DNA of 64,000 nt from an uncultured Clostridia bacterium. GTDB taxonomy: Bacteria; Bacillota; Clostridia; Christensenellales; CAG-917. Positions 56,936 through 64,000 of this stretch are shown here, piece after piece (within the stretch, counting starts at the first letter, position 1; every line of letters begins with the position of its first letter). The position numbers and the translations under genes were made by a program. Under the pieces are notes generated by a model. It was not told the origin of the DNA, searched no databases, and saw only the letters and a list, made by a program, of their open reading frames with translations. The stretch covers positions 98,855 through 162,854 of the forward strand of contig CAKQUV010000002.1 in the NCBI GenBank assembly GCA_934277615.1. The letters are read 5' to 3'.

Positions 56936-57535
56936 AAATTAATAATTAATAATTAATAATTAATAATTGCAAGTGGGCGTTGCCCACACCTAAATGAAGC
57001 TTATTCGAGGCGTTCTTATTAACGGAATGTGCTTATTCGAAGTTCGAGTCGCAAGGCGCCGAGCGAATAAGCGCCGAGCTTGCGTCACACACAAGGCTTT
57101 TAGCCACAATTGTCACTTGTGCCAATTGCTTGCTTTTTGCCTTGGTGCTCCTTCTTTCCTTCACACAAAAGACTGCGCTTTCATCTTATATAACCCACTA
57201 TCGTTCGCTTGTCTTTTGTATGTGGAAGCCTTGTGGGTGCAGTACAAGCGACTGCGCCGTGTTGTTGCCTAGCTGGCGCACAAAGCGCAGTGGCATAACA
57301 AGGGGGCGATACCTATTTATGCGAGTGCCGTTGTCTCCCCCGCGAGCGACGAATAATATTGTAGAGAATTATCCCTAACCGAGTGGTCGGGCGCGACGCG
57401 TTAAGCAACACATTCGGTGAATGTGTTGTAGCCAAAGCGAACGAGGCGGATTGCGGTGCGCAAACGCCGAAGTGGACATGCCGGCGTGTCCGGAAAGAGG
57501 GGGCACATTGCATTAAAGAAGTTACGATGCACCCG
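56936..57535 (+). repeat. mosaic hairpin-rich intergenic element, copy 3 of 3 (~0.6 kb)
   Basis: (AATTAATAATT)n leader right after the stop, then GTGGGCGTTGCCCAC, followed by modules ~95% identical to 5628-5897 and 6046-6130. Confidence 0.75.
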
Positions 57536-57599: not shown

Positions 57600-59012
57600 T
57601 TATTTCAACTTGCCGAGACCGATGGAATAACCTTGCGCTTTGCCGAGTTGTTTTGCGGTCTTGGTGTCGAGAATCTCAACGCAACGGATAAACGTACCGA
57701 TTTGTTCGCACATAAGGTCGAGGTTGAATTTGTCCATATGGTGATTGTCCGCAATCGAGCAGAGATAGTCGGGAGCGGTTACAAGCGCGATTTCGGGAAT
57801 ACGCTTATTGAAGAGCGGTTGACCTTCGCCGAAATGGAGCATATTGTGTCCGCGCAAAGTGAGCGTGCGCACGTTGTCGCGCTCTTTGATTGCCTCGTAA
57901 TAGATATCGTCCATAGTCTTGTTGCCGGTGTACACGAGTTCCACGTCAATGGGATTGGTCATCTTATACACGCCGTCAACGTCCTTCCATTCCGTGCAAC
58001 CGAGGTGTTCCACTGCGCAACCCGCAACGGCTTTCAGACCGCCTTTTTTGCCTTTCCACACTTGCTTGTTGTCGGCAAGGAATTTGGAAGTGGCTTGGTC
58101 CGTACCCGTACGGAAAGAGGGAAGACGGAAATGCCCCGTTACAAACGCGAAAACAAGGTTTCTATCCGTGGGATTTTGTTTAAAATACTTCATCATCGGC
58201 AGTATTCCGATCGCGCCGTTTTCCTCGCAGAAATTGCATCCGTCGGTGTGCGTGTTGACAATGATTGCCTCGTTTGTATCCTTCTTGCCTTTGAGCACGG
58301 CATAGAATGATTCCGTGTGCGCTTTTTCATATTTTCCGACAAGTTTCAAAGTGGCGGTTTTGTGTGCTTTTGCGGCGTCTAACACGGTTTTCCCGTCTGT
58401 TTGATTCACCCACACCATAGGCACTTTGAGATAGTGCAAAATGAAATTGAGCACCTGTCCTTCCACCATTTGATCGGACATATCTTCCCAAATGCAAATC
58501 ATGCCTTTCATACCCGAGAGTTGCGCCGCCCAGAAGGTGAGCAACGTCTTTACGAAGGATGTGCTGACGGGACCTCTGTAACTCTTTTCGATTTCAAGGT
58601 CGGCAGGGTAAGATTTGCGTTTATCGAAAGCGATTTTACTGCTGATTTTGGACAAATTTTTGATGTGGCAAACGGCAATTTTGCCTCTTGCTCTGGCAAA
58701 GCCGAGAGGGTGATTGCCCACTTCCACAAGTTTGCCGCAAACGCCGTCTTTATCTGTAAGTCCGCTGTAGGGGAAGGGCGAGGAAACGTGCACTTCTTTG
58801 CCGTCGACGGTCAATGCGCACTCGTCGCAAGTCCAACGCTGAAACTCGTACGGCGTTGTGTGAATTTCATATCCCATTTCCGTTATCTGAGTCTTTATCC
58901 ACTTGCAGAACTCGTTTTGAGCGTCCGTGCCTGTGAGTCGAACGCCAAAAGCGTTCATAGTGTCCATATCTTGCGCGATTTTTTGCGCGTTGCAATATTT
59001 TTGAATATCCAT
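57600..59012 (-). CDS. M28-like / PA-domain metallopeptidase-family protein (function uncertain)
   Basis: 470 aa with an AGGGGG SD. Weak M28-type metal-ligand patterns (NTHTDG, CEENG, TGH). Assignment rests on motif resemblance only. Confidence 0.45.
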   Translation of the reverse strand: MDIQKYCNAQKIAQDMDTMNAFGVRLTGTDAQNEFCKWIKTQITEMGYEIHTTPYEFQRWTCDECALTVDGKEVHVSSPFPYSGLTDKDGVCGKLVEVGNHPLGFARARGKIAVCHIKNLSKISSKIAFDKRKSYPADLEIEKSYRGPVSTSFVKTLLTFWAAQLSGMKGMICIWEDMSDQMVEGQVLNFILHYLKVPMVWVNQTDGKTVLDAAKAHKTATLKLVGKYEKAHTESFYAVLKGKKDTNEAIIVNTHTDGCNFCEENGAIGILPMMKYFKQNPTDRNLVFAFVTGHFRLPSFRTGTDQATSKFLADNKQVWKGKKGGLKAVAGCAVEHLGCTEWKDVDGVYKMTNPIDVELVYTGNKTMDDIYYEAIKERDNVRTLTLRGHNMLHFGEGQPLFNKRIPEIALVTAPDYLCSIADNHHMDKFNLDLMCEQIGTFIRCVEILDTKTAKQLGKAQGYSIGLGKLK

Positions 59013-59191
59013 AAAATACCCCCTGATACTTATAATTTCATTTTAATGCCAAAACCTGAGTGTGTCAACCCCGATTGTATACAAACGTATGATATCGTGC
59101 CATAACTTATAAAATGCATAGAAAAGGGACATTTTATCGAAAATACGTTGCGTTTTGACAGTTTTATCCTGCGAAATTCGATACAAAGGTA

Positions 59192-59220
59192 TTGAAAACC
59201 AAAAAACAAAGTGTTATAAT
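59192..59220 (+). promoter_or_regulatory. promoter of the hyp-like operon
   Basis: TTGAAA (59192-59197), 17-nt spacer, TGtTATAAT extended -10 (59212-59220). Confidence 0.6.
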
Positions 59221-59241
59221 ATATATCTAAAATAGGTAATT

Positions 59242-59916
59242 ATGGACTTAATTCGAACAATCGAACTGAAAAGGACTATCCTCGAAGACAACGACGCCGA
59301 CGCAAACAAACTGCGCTCGGAGCTTGACGACGCGCGCGTTTATTATATAAACGTTATGTCCGCTCCGGGCAGCGGCAAAACGTCTTTGCTTGTCAAACTT
59401 ATCGGCAAGCTCAAAGACAAATGCGCTGTGGGAGTTATGGAGGCAGATATAGACGGCGACGTTGACGCGTACACCGTACGCGAGGCAGGAGCGCAGTCAA
59501 TCCAGCTTCACACGGGCGGAATGTGCCACCTCGACGCGGATATGTCGCGTCAAGGGTTCAAAGAGTTCGGTACCAAAGAAGATATAGTGTTTTTGGAGAA
59601 TATCGGCAATCTCGTATGTCCTGCCGAGTTCGACACGGGCGCGCACCTCAAAATGGCGTTGCTCGCAATCCCCGAGGGCGACGACAAACCCCTCAAATAC
59701 ACGTTGATGTTTTCAAGTTGCGACGTGCTGGTTATCACCAAGATAGATACGGCAAAATACTTTGATTTCGACGTGGAAAGTTGCAAAGAACATCTTGCAA
59801 AAATCAATCCGAACGCAAAAGTTTTCGTCGTATCGTCCAAGACGGGCGAGGGCGTTGACGCGCTTGCGGATTGGATTTACGGCAAATACAGCGAATGGAA
59901 TGAGGCGTTGAAATGA
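59242..59916 (+). CDS. hypB: HypB-type G3E-family nickel metallochaperone GTPase, copy 1
   Basis: APGSGKTSLL P-loop, GGMCHLDA (CH motif), ENIGNLVCPAEFD and ITKID. Lacks a His-rich or CXXCGC N-terminus. Confidence 0.85.
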   Translation: MDLIRTIELKRTILEDNDADANKLRSELDDARVYYINVMSAPGSGKTSLLVKLIGKLKDKCAVGVMEADIDGDVDAYTVREAGAQSIQLHTGGMCHLDADMSRQGFKEFGTKEDIVFLENIGNLVCPAEFDTGAHLKMALLAIPEGDDKPLKYTLMFSSCDVLVITKIDTAKYFDFDVESCKEHLAKINPNAKVFVVSSKTGEGVDALADWIYGKYSEWNEALK

Positions 59917-60593
59917 GAGTTATATCCGTAAAAGAAAGCGTATTTTCAAACAATGACAAGGTTGCGGATTCCCTCAGAGCGTCGCTCAAGGCGCAAGGCA
60001 CGTTTATGCTCAACGTGATGTCTTCTCCCGGCAGCGGCAAAACAACGCTCCTTACGAGGCTCATTCGCGACATGAAACAGACGCTCAAAATAGTGGCGAT
60101 GGACGTTGATATCGAAACGGACGTAGACGCAAGGCGCATTGCCGAGAACGCAGGCGTGGAAAGCGTGCAAATTCACAACGGCGGGCTTTGCCACATAGAC
60201 GCGCAGATGGTTGCGGACGCACTGGCTCAGGCGGATTTTCCCAAATCCGACCTCATCGTGCTTGAAAACATCGGCAATCTTGTATGTCCTGCCGAGTTCG
60301 ATACCGGCGCGCACCTCAATATGATGCTTTTGTCCGTGCCGGAGGGCGACGACAAACCTTTGAAATATCCGCTCATGTTTGAGAAGTGCGACGTCGTGGT
60401 GGTAACCAAAATCGACGCGCTCGAAGCATTCGACTTCGATATGCAAGCGTTTGAGAAACACATTAAGAATCTAAACAAGAACGCACAGATTTTCCCCGTC
60501 AGCGCAAAGACGGGCGAGGGCGTCGACTTGTTGGAGAATACATTGTACAAAAAAATAAAGTTTTTCGGTAAAGGAGAAAACATCAATGGCTGA
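59913..60593 (+). CDS. hypB: HypB-type G3E-family nickel metallochaperone GTPase, copy 2
   Basis: SPGSGKTTLL, GGLCHIDA, ENIGNLVCPAEFD and VTKID. ATGA overlap with copy 1. Confidence 0.85.
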   Translation: MRVISVKESVFSNNDKVADSLRASLKAQGTFMLNVMSSPGSGKTTLLTRLIRDMKQTLKIVAMDVDIETDVDARRIAENAGVESVQIHNGGLCHIDAQMVADALAQADFPKSDLIVLENIGNLVCPAEFDTGAHLNMMLLSVPEGDDKPLKYPLMFEKCDVVVVTKIDALEAFDFDMQAFEKHIKNLNKNAQIFPVSAKTGEGVDLLENTLYKKIKFFGKGENING

Positions 60594-63447
60594 GATGAGC
60601 AAAGCATTTGTGCCCAAGTATATGGGAGAAGCAAATCCGAGTGAGAAAATCCTCAAATTGGCAAGAAAAATCACGGACTGCATCGATCACAAGATCAAAG
60701 GCGTGACAGCAAACGATCCCGAGTATTGGGGACTTCGTTGCCTCGTAACCGACGAAATGGCAGACGTCGCACTCACGATGAAAGTGCGCCATCACTACAC
60801 GTTCGAGCAAATGTTGAAGCTCAATCCGCAATACAAAGCGGAAGATCTTCAAAAACTTCTCGACGAGATGAGCCACGTAGGGCTTTTGGAATACGATTAT
60901 GGCGACAATTACGACAAGAACGGTCCCATCAAGGGCGCAAAACGCGTGCGTCGTTATTGCCTTCCCATGTTCGTTCCGGGTTCTGCGGAATTTACTAACA
61001 TGATCAAAAAGCAACTCGACGATCACCCCGAGCTTGCAATGTTCTTTGAAAGAATGACATATTTGCCTTTGACCATGGTTACGCCTATGGTTCCGGCAGG
61101 CGGCGCAGGTATCGGTATGCACGTTATCCCCGTTGAAAAGGCAATCGAGATGGAAAACGGCACTATGGACATCGAGCACATTTCTTACTGGCTCAAAAAG
61201 TATGAAGGACACCTTGGCGTAGGTATCTGCTCTTGCCGTTACGGCCGTGCAAAACTCGGCGAAGGCTGCGGCGACAGCTGCGAAGAGTGGTGTATCGGTA
61301 TCGGCGATATGGCTGATTACTGCCGCGAAACCGGCAAAGGCCGCAATATCACATACGATGAGGCAATGCAAATTCTCCGCAACGCAGAGAAGAACGGCTT
61401 TGTTCACCAAATCACCAACATCGACGGCGAAAACAAGATTTTCGCAATCTGCAACTGCAACGTCAACATCTGCAACGCATTGCGTACGTCGCAACTTTTC
61501 AATACGCCAAATATGTCCAGAAGCGCATACGTGGCGAAAGTCGAGAAAGACAAATGCGTGGCTTGCGGCAAGTGCGTAGAGTATTGCCCTGCAGGCGCTG
61601 TCAAACTCGGTCAAAAACTTTGCACCAAGCAAGGCGAAATCAAATATCCCAAACACGAACTTCCCGACAACCTCAGCTGGGGTCCGGACAAATGGGATGA
61701 GGATTACAGAGATAAAAACCGCATCAACTGCTATGAAACAGGTACGTCGCCCTGTAAGGTCGCTTGCCCTGCGCACATTGCAGTCCAAGGTTATATCCGC
61801 AAAGCAAAAGAAGGCAAATATCAGGAAGCGCTTGCTCTCATCAAGAAGGACAACCCGTTCCCGGCAATCTGCGGCCGCGTCTGCAACAAGCGTTGTGAGG
61901 CTGCTTGCACGAGAGGAACCATTGACGAGGCAGTCGCAATCGACGATATCAAGAAATTCATCGCAGAGCAAGATTTGCATGCGGAAACCAGATACATACC
62001 CGAAGTGGTCATTCCGTCCAACGTTGACAAACAATGGTCGCAAAAGATCGCAATCATCGGCGCAGGTCCTGCAGGTCTTTCTTGCGCATACTATCTTGCA
62101 ACCAAGGGTTACAAACCCACCGTCTTTGAAAAGAACGAGAAACTCGGCGGTATGCTCACTTACGGTATTCCGTCCTACAAGCTCGAAAAAGACGTTATCG
62201 AGGCAGAAATCGACGTTTTGCGTGAACTTGGCGTCGAATTCAAGACCGGCGTAGACGTCGGCAAAGACGTAACGATTCCCCAGCTTCGCGAACAAGGTTA
62301 CAAAGCGTTCTACGTTGCAATCGGTTGCCAAGGCGGCAGATTGCCCGGAGTTCCTGGCGAGGACGCAATCGGCACGGATATGGCGGTTTCCTTCTTGCAC
62401 AAAGCAACTGAGAACCATGACAGAAAGATGAACGGCGCAACCGTCGTCATCGGCGGCGGCAACGTTGCAGTTGACTGCGCACGTACGGCTGTTCGTTTCG
62501 GCAGCGACGTTGTCGGTATGTATTGCCTCGAATCTCGCGACACAATGCCTGCAAGCAAGAAAGAAGTTGAAGAAACTCTTGCGGACGGCATCACCGTCAA
62601 CAACGGTTGGGGCCCCAAGGAAATCCTCAAGAACGAGGACGGCACCGTCAAAGCGGTCGTATTCAAGAAATGCCTCAGCGTTATCGATCCTGTTACAAAG
62701 AGATTCAATCCTCAATATGACGAAAACGACACCATCACCGTCGAGGCTCAAAACGTCATCTTTGCAATCGGTCAAACGGTTGTTTGGGGCGACTTGCTCA
62801 AAGGCACCAAGGTTGAGTTCCATCACGGCAATTATCCTGTCGCAGACTCTCTCACTTATCAAACGGCAGAGCCCGACATCTTCGTCGGCGGCGACGTGTA
62901 CAGCGGACCGAAGTTTGCAATCGACGCAATCGAGGCAGGTAAGAACGCGGCTGTATCTCTCCACAGATTCGTACAACCGGGCACGAGTATGACCATCGGT
63001 CGCAATCGTCGCGACTTCATCGAGCTTGACAAGAACAACATTGTCATCGACAGCTACGACACGGCAGGCAGACAAGAAGCAAAAGAACTCGACGGCGACA
63101 AACACTCCTTCAGAGATTTGCACGGCACTCTCACTGCAGAGCAAGTGCACACAGAGGCGTCTCGTTGCCTCGGCTGCGGCGCAAGCGTCGTAGACGAGAA
63201 CAAGTGCATCGGTTGTGGCGTTTGCACCACCAAGTGCGAATTTGACGCAATCCACCTCCACAGAGAACATCCCGAATGCTCGACGATGGTACGCAGTGAA
63301 GACAAGTTCAAGAAGATCTTGCCGTACGCTATCAAACGTGGATTCAGAATCGTCTTTGGCAAAAAGACCGCCGAAGAAAAAGCGTCTCAAAAGAAACACA
63401 AAGAGTACGTAAAAGCAACCAAAAAAGCCAAAAAAGCAAACAAATAA
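60586..63447 (+). CDS. 953-aa multidomain Fe-S flavoprotein (Cys-rich N-domain, 4Fe-4S ferredoxin, GltD-like FAD/NAD(P) oxidoreductase, C-terminal 2x[4Fe-4S])
   Basis: CSCRYGRAKLGEGCGDSCEEWC and CNCNVNIC clusters. CVACGKCVEYCP, then a GltD-type CPAH...CGRVCNKRCEAACTR and IAIIGAGPAGLSCA dinucleotide fold. C-terminal CLGCG...CIGCGVCTTKC. The start overlaps the hypB copy 2 stop. Confidence 0.8.
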   Translation: MAEMSKAFVPKYMGEANPSEKILKLARKITDCIDHKIKGVTANDPEYWGLRCLVTDEMADVALTMKVRHHYTFEQMLKLNPQYKAEDLQKLLDEMSHVGLLEYDYGDNYDKNGPIKGAKRVRRYCLPMFVPGSAEFTNMIKKQLDDHPELAMFFERMTYLPLTMVTPMVPAGGAGIGMHVIPVEKAIEMENGTMDIEHISYWLKKYEGHLGVGICSCRYGRAKLGEGCGDSCEEWCIGIGDMADYCRETGKGRNITYDEAMQILRNAEKNGFVHQITNIDGENKIFAICNCNVNICNALRTSQLFNTPNMSRSAYVAKVEKDKCVACGKCVEYCPAGAVKLGQKLCTKQGEIKYPKHELPDNLSWGPDKWDEDYRDKNRINCYETGTSPCKVACPAHIAVQGYIRKAKEGKYQEALALIKKDNPFPAICGRVCNKRCEAACTRGTIDEAVAIDDIKKFIAEQDLHAETRYIPEVVIPSNVDKQWSQKIAIIGAGPAGLSCAYYLATKGYKPTVFEKNEKLGGMLTYGIPSYKLEKDVIEAEIDVLRELGVEFKTGVDVGKDVTIPQLREQGYKAFYVAIGCQGGRLPGVPGEDAIGTDMAVSFLHKATENHDRKMNGATVVIGGGNVAVDCARTAVRFGSDVVGMYCLESRDTMPASKKEVEETLADGITVNNGWGPKEILKNEDGTVKAVVFKKCLSVIDPVTKRFNPQYDENDTITVEAQNVIFAIGQTVVWGDLLKGTKVEFHHGNYPVADSLTYQTAEPDIFVGGDVYSGPKFAIDAIEAGKNAAVSLHRFVQPGTSMTIGRNRRDFIELDKNNIVIDSYDTAGRQEAKELDGDKHSFRDLHGTLTAEQVHTEASRCLGCGASVVDENKCIGCGVCTTKCEFDAIHLHREHPECSTMVRSEDKFKKILPYAIKRGFRIVFGKKTAEEKASQKKHKEYVKATKKAKKANK

Positions 63448-63456
63448 GAGGTAATT

Positions 63457-63801
63457 ATGCACGAGTTAGGAGTGGTTTTTCACATTGCGGACATAGTGAG
63501 CGACGTCGCTCGCAAGAACAACGCGTCCAAAATTGCAAAGGTCGTCATGCAAATCGGCGAGGTTTCCACCGTCGTCAACGACCAACTCATCGATTGCTGG
63601 AATTGGAACGCCAACCGCACCGTCCTTCTCAAAGGTTGTAAAATAGAAGTGGAAACCATTCCTGCCGTCACCTATTGCGAGGATTGCAAAAAAGAGTATC
63701 CCACCGTTCAATACGGCAAAATTTGCCCCTACTGTGGCAGTGAGCATACTTATCTTTTGCGAGGGAACGAAGTCCAAATCAAAGAAATCCTCGTGGAATA
63801 A
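63457..63801 (+). CDS. hypA: HypA-type nickel insertion / zinc-finger metallochaperone
   Basis: MHELGV N-terminus (MHE nickel site) and a CEDC...CPYC zinc site. 114 aa. The stop lies inside palindromic element copy 4. Confidence 0.85.
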   Translation: MHELGVVFHIADIVSDVARKNNASKIAKVVMQIGEVSTVVNDQLIDCWNWNANRTVLLKGCKIEVETIPAVTYCEDCKKEYPTVQYGKICPYCGSEHTYLLRGNEVQIKEILVE

Positions 63802-63923
63802 GGGCTCAAATAGCGAATAACTTCGGCAGAGCCGTCCGCCCGTCAACTCATTTACGCTTAGTAAATTAGGGTTGCCGTTCGGACGGCTCTTTCTTGTTCT
63901 TCATCTATTTGAGCTCTTATTCT
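63797..63923 (+). repeat. ~125-bp imperfect palindrome with attC-like geometry, copy 4
   Basis: GAATAAGGGCTCAAATAGC-GAATAAC(63815-63821)-ttcggc-AGAGCCGTCCGCCCGTCAACTCATTTACGCTTAGTAAATTAGGGTTGCCGTTCGGACGGCTCT-ttctt-GTTCTTC(63896-63902)-ATCTATTTGAGCTCTTATTC. Confidence 0.8.
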
Positions 63924-64000
63924 ATTGCGCATTAGTCAAAGCTTCTTGTGCATCAACTCACGTACGTACTAGTACGTTAGGGTTGCTGCCCAAGGGGCTT

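Follow-up and report, generated by a model that had tools for sequence, protein, structure and literature searches.

The stretch of DNA analysed here, termed the window, comprises 64 000 nt (contig CAKQUV010000002.1, positions 98,855 to 162,854 of the forward strand) of a metagenome-assembled genome (MAG; 1.29 Mb, 18 contigs, 64 % complete) from an uncultured Clostridia bacterium. Towards its 3′ end lie four tightly coupled genes on the same strand with one promoter ahead of them, encoding two HypB-type GTPases (HypB1 and HypB2), a 953-aa Fe–S flavoprotein and the nickel metallochaperone HypA. The features of this locus are as follows.

59192–59220, + strand: putative sigma-70-type promoter with an extended −10 TG (TTGAAA-17 nt-TATAAT, 11/12 consensus matches)
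59242–59916, + strand: hypB1, HypB-type G3E nickel GTPase, 224 aa (TIGR00073)
59913–60593, + strand: hypB2, second HypB paralog, 226 aa (TIGR00073), with an ATGA overlap with the hypB1 stop
60586–63447, + strand: isrA-like gene, 953-aa Fe–S flavoprotein of the IsrA 'clade 9' family, as judged from domain matches and motif spacing
60640–60900, + strand: winged-helix-like subdomain, approximately residues 20–105 (AlphaFold2 (AF2) model and weak Foldseek matches)
61150–61485, + strand: Cys6 subdomain, approximately residues 190–300, candidate nickel or Ni–Fe–S site (invariant residues)
61555–61587, + strand: ferredoxin-type motif CVACGKCVEYC (C324, C327, C330 and C334; Fer4/Fer4_6 at residues 316–338; invariant in 11 cluster representatives)
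61726–63270, + strand: GltD/NfnB-like electron-input module, comprising DPD domain II (two [4Fe-4S] clusters), FAD and NAD(P)H Rossmann folds and a C-terminal ferredoxin motif at C874–C884 (Pfam/NCBIfam)
63457–63801, + strand: hypA, nickel metallochaperone, 114 aa (PF01155)
63805–63913, no strand assigned: dispersed palindromic repeat of ~100 bp directly past the hypA stop (repeat copies in the MAG; terminator-like hairpin)

Layout of the operon and its products

The near-consensus, putative promoter at 59192–59220, identified by its consensus match, is the best + strand site within 58900–64000 and lies 22 nt upstream of the hypB1 start. Downstream, the start of the flavoprotein gene overlaps hypB2 by 8 nt, and hypA begins 10 nt past the flavoprotein stop, with an AAGAGG Shine–Dalgarno sequence ahead of it. 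The repeat that follows hypA has ~45 further matches in the MAG at 70–97 % identity (e.g. C8:50859–50967 and C1:248517–248619) and contains a terminator-like hairpin (63874–63887) with a T-rich tail; it probably marks the end of the operon and may be a REP/MITE-like element (repetitive extragenic palindrome or miniature inverted-repeat transposable element) that doubles as a terminator. An original prediction, made from the sequence of the window alone, had described the four-gene order with translational coupling, a strong promoter and a palindromic element after hypA, and had noted a lack of hypCDEF and hydrogenase genes. Each of these features was recovered: the open reading frames (ORFs) lie at the positions listed above, the promoter is the top site of the region and the palindrome is real, being one copy of the dispersed repeat, while hypCDEF and hydrogenase genes were found neither in the window, nor downstream of it, nor in the 64 %-complete MAG.

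Both HypB proteins score far above the equivalog cut-off of TIGR00073 (HypB1, 232.6 bits; HypB2, 234.3 bits; cut-off 121.2), and they share 51 % identity. A motif scan located GSGKT at residue 43, GGMCH at 92, ENIGNLVCP at 119 and TKID at 166 of HypB1; the GSGKT, G-G-x-C-H, ENIGNLVCP and TKID motifs are retained in both copies, in agreement with the predicted HypB identity, P-loop and metal site of each. The N-terminus of HypB1 carries no His-rich or CxxCGC stretch, and the two proteins are of the short type that, as in Helicobacter pylori, lacks the N-terminal high-affinity site. HypA scores 107.9 bits against PF01155 (cut-off 28.9) and possesses the N-terminal MHE nickel motif together with a zinc site formed by CEDC (74) and CPYC (90). 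Its score against TIGR00100 (79.4 bits) is under the equivalog cut-off of 88.1 even though PF01155 is passed easily, suggesting that this HypA is divergent and consistent with a client-specific subfamily. HypA and the HypBs thus belong to the families that serve hydrogenases and the Helicobacter urease, with their metal and GTPase motifs intact. Unlike in hydrogenase maturation, however, the window encodes no large subunit, HypC/D/E/F or urease; the presumed client is the flavoprotein, the two HypBs are divergent and in tandem, and HypA falls below the equivalog cut-off.

Residues 375–894 of the flavoprotein are GltD/NfnB-like (PF14691, 82.8 bits; PF07992, 103.2 bits; PRK12771, 423 bits) and include the nucleotide-binding motifs GAGPAG at 492 and GGGNVA at 623. 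The highest-scoring PDB sequences are NfnA, NfnI, GltD and NfnB-like modules that are joined to formate dehydrogenases. Modules of the NfnB/GltD/dihydropyrimidine dehydrogenase type (e.g. PDB 5jca, 4ylf, 9n5u and 9bov) align with residues 375–800 (E 1e-59 to 1e-87) and have two [4Fe-4S] clusters, FAD and an NAD(P)H site in common with the window protein; in contrast, they possess no counterpart of residues 1–315 and no linkage to nickel chaperones. Residues 1–315 returned no Pfam or NCBIfam family and no PDB sequence match; a PDB sequence search with the N-terminal region matched the ferredoxin motif alone, and a Pfam search of the N-domains of ten diverse family members at E values up to 5 returned no known family. 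Homologs are about 900–980 aa long, one set of them spanning 935–1002 aa.

Within this N-domain, an alignment of 53 sequences that reaches down to 35 % identity shows no variation at C215, C217, R218, C236, H274, C289, N290, C291 and C296, and the same columns are fixed in 11 cluster representatives; three further cysteines of the window protein (C228, C232 and C246) are not conserved. The AF2 model of residues 1–380 (mean confidence, pLDDT, 67) places a winged helix ahead of an alpha/beta subdomain that bears the cysteines. The winged-helix part is modelled with pLDDT 81–97 over residues 11–100 and has only MarR/wHTH-type folds as Foldseek matches in the PDB, all weak (E ≥ 0.076); some family members show weak TrmB/MarR/HVO_A0114 Pfam matches in the N-terminal region. 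A second model, of residues 125–315, has a mean pLDDT of 78. Foldseek searches of the PDB with the AF2 models revealed no fold match for the Cys6 subdomain (best E 0.73, TM-scores <0.2). The description of a large GltD-like Fe–S flavoprotein with a Cys-rich N-domain was therefore borne out by PF14691, PF07992 and the six invariant cysteines, and the structural modelling that had been proposed for the N-domain yielded a confident winged helix and a Cys-rich part without a PDB fold match.

Linkage of the flavoprotein with HypA and HypB

As had been proposed, we surveyed the linkage between the flavoprotein and hypAB in other genomes. Scanning species-representative genomes with a four-sequence N-domain alignment returned at least 591 loci, of which the best 80 were named and examined. 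These 80 loci span five phyla (Bacillota, Bacteroidota, Spirochaetota, Actinomycetota and Mycoplasmatota), with carriers among the Christensenella-like UBA7588 (96 % identity), Erysipelotrichaceae, Oscillospiraceae, Acutalibacteraceae, Lachnospiraceae (including Pseudobutyrivibrio xylanivorans DSM 14809 and P. ruminis), rumen Bacteroidales, Spirochaetia, Coriobacteriia and Anaeroplasmataceae. In metagenomes, the family is represented by thousands of near-identical sequences from gut and rumen anaerobes. hypA adjoins the flavoprotein gene in 72/80 loci, and most of the other eight lie on contigs that end too early; hypB is inside the fetched flank in ~60/80 and in most of these is directly adjacent, usually upstream. 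When the flanking ORFs were clustered without supervision, HypB and HypA emerged as the sole broadly common neighbours. Both in the genus and in a second family of its order, loci with as little as 36 % N-domain identity keep the arrangement hypB-X-hypA, where X is the flavoprotein gene; elsewhere X-hypA-hypB and hypB-hypA-X also occur, as do loci with hypB several kb off. A DUF5692 membrane protein (PF18948, E 1.8e-128; L089 13721–14866) is encoded ~0.8 kb downstream in 15/80 loci, mostly of Bacteroidales, in agreement with published neighbourhood statistics, and there is no DUF5692 gene near the window locus. Apart from HypA, HypB and DUF5692, the neighbours are lineage-specific.

Six Lachnospiraceae and Oscillospiraceae loci (L042, L047, L051, L076, L100 and L112, of which L047 is the P. 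xylanivorans DSM 14809 locus) carry a five-gene set ~1–6 kb upstream of the isrA-like gene. One product of the set is a CooC/MinD-like ATPase carrying the CxC motif GCYC; the others are two HGD-D proteins (2-hydroxyacyl-CoA dehydratase-like), an activator ATPase of the BcrAD/BadFG type and a protein of ~240 aa whose sequence matches CdhC (acetyl-CoA synthase (ACS) beta) above the cut-off and has CGSCGLQEIC at its end. hypB is missing or displaced in these loci, and the set may represent a different or extended maturation route.

Within the genus, we examined 41 genomes, 28 of which are at least 90 % complete. Profile searches of all 41 revealed no [NiFe] large subunit (PF00374, PF00346), HypD (PF01924), carbon monoxide dehydrogenase (CODH)/prismane protein (PF03063) or LarA (PF09861), and no urease alpha subunit was found in the five nearest genomes. 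Each of those five has three [FeFe]-hydrogenase genes; [FeFe]-hydrogenases do not use HypAB. The flavoprotein N-domain is present in 34/41 genomes. Taking matches with E <1e-20 as true hypA genes, all 39 strong hypA matches with a detectable flavoprotein gene have it on the same contig within ~3 kb, and the single hypA without one belongs to G051, a genome that is 76 % complete, where the contig that carries it is short. Conversely, the six flavoprotein-less genomes (G002, G006, G015, G017, G049 and G054) have no true hypA, and the second flavoprotein paralogs of G042, G046, G047, G052 and G055 each have a hypA of their own, as paralogous copies usually do. This pattern is hard to reconcile with HypAB serving any other protein. 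Two genes in the sample are disrupted: the hypA by the second paralog of G052 (C1:99486–99820) is split in two frames, and the flavoprotein gene of G022 (C18:1018–2176) is interrupted by TGA and TAA codons in frame. Decay of the copies or errors of assembly may account for this.

Neither the MAG nor its four closest near-complete relatives encode any G3E GTPase other than the two tandem HypBs. A maximum-likelihood tree of 84 HypB sequences from flavoprotein loci places the window HypB2 in a clade of nine (support 99/99), all of which stand in tandem with a second hypB. The partners of eight of these nine, including the window HypB1, form a clade of their own (support 98/86), and the two clades branch in mirrored fashion; the remaining partner, from Anaeroplasmataceae, has no resolved placement. 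Since the HypB1/HypB2 pair accompanies flavoproteins whose N-domains have diverged to 63–66 % identity (loci L048 and L103), the duplication is old, with both copies kept intact. Other genomes of the genus possess two hypB genes of different origin and arrangement. Co-inheritance of the paralogs is compatible with a HypB1/HypB2 heterodimer, which it fits without proving.

Beyond the window end, 20 kb of sequence encode a TetR regulator, a Nik/Opp-type ABC importer, a tetratricopeptide repeat (TPR) protein, a citrate/ArsB-type transporter, serine dehydratase and BipA. The importer, ~1.5 kb downstream of the operon, is encoded by five genes, for two permeases, two short ATPases and a binding protein of the SBP_bac_5 family. 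Nickel models are the top NCBIfam matches of four of these five products (NikD, NikE, Opp5A_nikA and the Opp2B nickel permease), and for the second permease the oligopeptide model Opp4C outscores the nickel models. Within the genus, the Nik-like binding protein occurs in 24/41 genomes and in none of those that lack the flavoprotein; it is usually encoded on the hypA contig, 3–6 kb off, and this linkage is kept down to 51 % identity. With moderate confidence, the genome distribution and linkage of the importer can be said to agree with a role in nickel supply.

Relationship to IsrA, proposed function and alternatives

The closest described systems are IsrA (VUZ27132.1, 901 aa), a putative isoprene reductase that Acetobacterium wieringae ISORED-2 induces with isoprene, and its 'clade 9' homologs (Kronen et al. 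2023, mSystems, PMC10134865). IsrA has an unannotated N-terminal region of ~270 aa with CxC motifs at C180/C182 and C254/C256, a ferredoxin motif at 289, DPD domain II and an FAD/NAD(P) domain, and its Cys6 'cluster V' ends a chain of four [4Fe-4S] clusters (PMC10134865). Of 988 homologs, 73 % were reported to have HypA nearby, 56 % HypB, 21 % TetR and 40 % DUF5692; IsrA, HypA and HypB are co-induced by isoprene, and ISORED-2 lacks [NiFe]-hydrogenase structural genes (PMC10134865). Kronen et al. proposed IsrA as the nickel target and cluster V as the nickel site, and suggested that the isr operon was acquired horizontally (PMC10134865). A clade 9 homolog is also attributed to Acetobacterium woodii (PMC10134865). 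In Pelotomaculum, hypA and hypB are 373-fold and 585-fold up, respectively, with isoprene (2026 preprints).

The window protein shares the architecture of IsrA (an unannotated N-terminus of ~270–310 aa, a ferredoxin motif, DPD domain II, FAD/NAD(P) domain and C-terminal ferredoxin) and differs in length (953 versus 901 aa). Its C215/C217, C289/C291 and ferredoxin C324 are spaced by 74 and 35 residues, identically to IsrA, and 13 cluster representatives show the spacing CxC-74-CNC-35-CxxCxxCxxxC either exactly or with a deviation of at most two residues; its six invariant cysteines match the published cluster V. Placed in this way, by architecture and motif spacing against the published description, the protein appears to be an IsrA 'clade 9'-type homolog. 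Both loci have adjacent hypA and hypB genes in hosts without [NiFe]-hydrogenase, and the same nickel-to-Cys6 hypothesis applies to each. The window locus is not an isr operon, however. Besides isrA, the five-gene operon of A. wieringae has two hypA genes, a single hypB and a gene for a ferredoxin of ~350 aa that is a paralog of the IsrA N-domain, whereas the window has one hypA, two hypB genes and no ~350-aa ferredoxin. An N-domain search of the MAG likewise returned no ~350-aa paralog, the sole matches being the flavoprotein and a ferredoxin motif within a 501-aa frame (C3:91845), orthologs of which in G010 and G013 coincide with [FeFe]-hydrogenase (PF02906) matches. The hosts also differ, one being a gut Christensenellales-like MAG without CODH/ACS and LarA and the other an acetogen with both, and isoprene, which induces the A. 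wieringae IsrA, has no evidence as a substrate of the window protein. A further parallel is offered by the CODH C-cluster and ACS A-cluster, likewise Cys-rich sites at the end of an Fe–S wire, nickel being suspected in the window protein; its N-domain has no sequence or fold similarity to CODH/ACS, and its chaperones are HypAB rather than CooC/AcsF, although CooC-like and CdhC-like proteins accompany the isrA-like gene in some Lachnospiraceae and Oscillospiraceae loci.

Our favoured reading, which we regard as probable, is that the operon encodes a member of IsrA 'clade 9' together with its own nickel-delivery machinery. The most secure part, very likely correct, is that HypB1, HypB2 and HypA serve the flavoprotein, while the odds of nickel lying in or beside the Cys6 site itself are about even. 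Under this model, NAD(P)H would reduce the FAD of the GltD/NfnB-like module, and electrons would run through four [4Fe-4S] clusters, of which DPD domain II holds two and each ferredoxin motif one, towards the N-terminal site formed by C215, C217, C236, C289, C291 and C296 near H274, R218 and N290; this direction is suggested by the domain order and the published model. There, an unsaturated, probably hydrophobic, substrate would be reduced, the nature of the substrate being suggested by the TetR neighbour and by the isoprene link of the family. HypB1 and HypB2, acting in a GTP-dependent manner and possibly as a heterodimer, would with HypA insert nickel into or beside the N-terminal site to give a Ni or Ni–Fe–S centre; the importer ~1.5 kb downstream may provide the nickel, and the TetR regulator between hypA and the importer may sense the substrate. 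More tentatively, and with odds that we put a little short of even, IsrA-type proteins may constitute a new Ni–Fe–S enzyme class matured by HypAB without a hydrogenase, here by an obligate HypB1/HypB2 heterodimer. The class idea is already published as a hypothesis, to which the heterodimer and the sole-client lineage are additions. Also new are the old HypB1/HypB2 pair, the linked Nik-like transporter and the lack of a PDB fold for the Cys6 subdomain, the lineage being one in which the flavoprotein is the sole visible client.

Several points weigh against the favoured reading. The literature on the family, including the two 2026 Pelotomaculum preprints, contains no nickel measurement and no biochemistry, so the Cys6 site may simply hold another Fe–S cluster. 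Linkage is imperfect in that the Pseudobutyrivibrio loci have no adjacent hypB, and a 953-aa paralog (L026, G001:C15:6141–8840; 48–51 % N-domain identity) has neither hypA nor hypB in the fetched 16 kb, so the chaperone genes are not kept by every family member. With respect to the importer, every Nik match is below its curated cut-off (e.g. NikE 172.7/332.6; NikA 55.6/393), 11 flavoprotein-bearing genomes of the genus have no Nik-like binding protein, and the importer is divergently paired with a TetR regulator rather than NikR. Confidence in the structure models is moderate (pLDDT 67 and 78). Since the MAG is 64 % complete, claims of absence rest on its relatives; these genomes are related to one another and are not independent samples, making the genus pattern descriptive rather than statistical.

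The alternative that survives best, though unlikely, also accepts the flavoprotein as the HypAB client and proposes that the metal is delivered elsewhere, that it is another metal (e.g. zinc) or that HypAB act in folding or assembly, with Cys6 holding an all-iron Fe–S cluster. In its favour, CxC ligates a plain [4Fe-4S] cluster in ferredoxin:thioredoxin reductase (as noted by the authors of PMC10134865), HypA bears a structural zinc site, and the invariant H274 and other invariant polar residues could make a separate site. However, both HypBs retain the Cys-His...Cys nickel ligands and HypA its MHE motif, many genomes of the genus carry a linked Nik-like importer, and the variant loci add a CooC-like CxC ATPase and a CdhC-like protein, both tied to Ni–Fe–S assembly.

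A second alternative, which we consider highly improbable, is that HypAB serve a [NiFe]-hydrogenase, CODH or urease elsewhere in the genome, the flavoprotein being the NAD(P)H-linked electron partner of that enzyme and not a nickel protein. This would accord with the textbook role of HypA and HypB and with the C-terminal two thirds of the flavoprotein, an NfnB/GltD-type module of the kind fused to other catalytic subunits in solved complexes; moreover, the MAG is incomplete, and some carriers, such as Pelotomaculum, do have [NiFe]-hydrogenases. Nevertheless, no hydrogenase, CODH or urease gene is present in the 20 kb past the window end, the genus searches described above returned no such client, hypA tracks the flavoprotein gene copy by copy, and A. 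wieringae ISORED-2 also lacks [NiFe]-hydrogenase structural genes. For this genus, the hydrogenase-partner reading is close to refuted. The original prediction had offered two possibilities, and its suggestion of an electron-transfer partner for a hydrogenase encoded beyond position 64000 is not supported, as no hydrogenase was detected in those 20 kb and no [NiFe] large subunit or HypD in the 41 genomes. Its other suggestion, of chaperones dedicated to the Cys-rich N-domain, is supported: the downstream [NiFe]-hydrogenase cluster named beforehand as evidence to the contrary was not found in the 20 kb inspected, and the linkage to hypA and hypB is strongly conserved. This second suggestion had already been put forward for the family (PMC10134865).

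It is equally improbable that hypB-X-hypA is a mobile cassette whose selfish or accidental association has no functional meaning: the 60–70 % N-domain identity among Bacteroidota, Spirochaetota, Actinomycetota and Bacillota points to horizontal transfer (also suggested for the isr operon in PMC10134865) and dispersed repeats border the operon, but all of its genes are intact with conserved catalytic motifs, isoprene co-induction has been reported, and the association persists while gene order varies, which argues for selection on co-occurrence rather than a frozen cassette.

If the favoured reading is correct and nickel does enter Cys6, IsrA-type proteins would join the short list of nickel enzymes and represent a third class of HypA/HypB client after hydrogenase and urease. 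Given how common the family is among gut and rumen anaerobes, its substrate (possibly a conjugated diene, or else some other unsaturated hydrophobic compound) could matter for host-associated biohydrogenation. The window locus adds no new concept; rather, it offers a clean background without hydrogenase, CODH, urease or LarA, and a defined chaperone set (HypB1, HypB2, HypA and possibly the Nik-like importer) suited to heterologous reconstitution. Should IsrA-type proteins indeed be a HypAB-matured class of nickel enzyme, this genus, with no other visible nickel client, would provide the minimal natural system for proving it.

Repeats and other features around the operon

Past hypA lie ~1.5 kb of dispersed repeats and the TetR regulator, which is encoded on the minus strand (L009 934–1488; PF00440 and TetR_C_8). 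An Rfam search of the 1.5-kb spacer past hypA returned no match at E ≤1. The spacer includes a modular, GC-rich, non-coding repeat of up to ~470 bp (L009 400–900, equivalent to 64045–64545) with 66 matches in the MAG. Partial copies are present within the window at 57015–57082, 57389–57473 and 57481–57532, such that fragments of this repeat border the hyp operon region on both sides. It is probably related to the hairpin-repeat arrays of the same genome.

A link to conjugated-fatty-acid hydrogenation was considered and found to be unsupported here: MCRA/oleate hydratase (PF06100) occurs in 6/41 genomes of the genus, on other contigs, and in neither the MAG nor its nearest relatives. This finding applies to the genus sampled and not to other lineages.

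Upstream of the operon, and divergent from it, a 470-aa ORF on the minus strand (57600–59012) has no Pfam or NCBIfam match and is preceded by a promoter-like site on the same strand (59068–59040) that matches the consensus at 11/12 positions.

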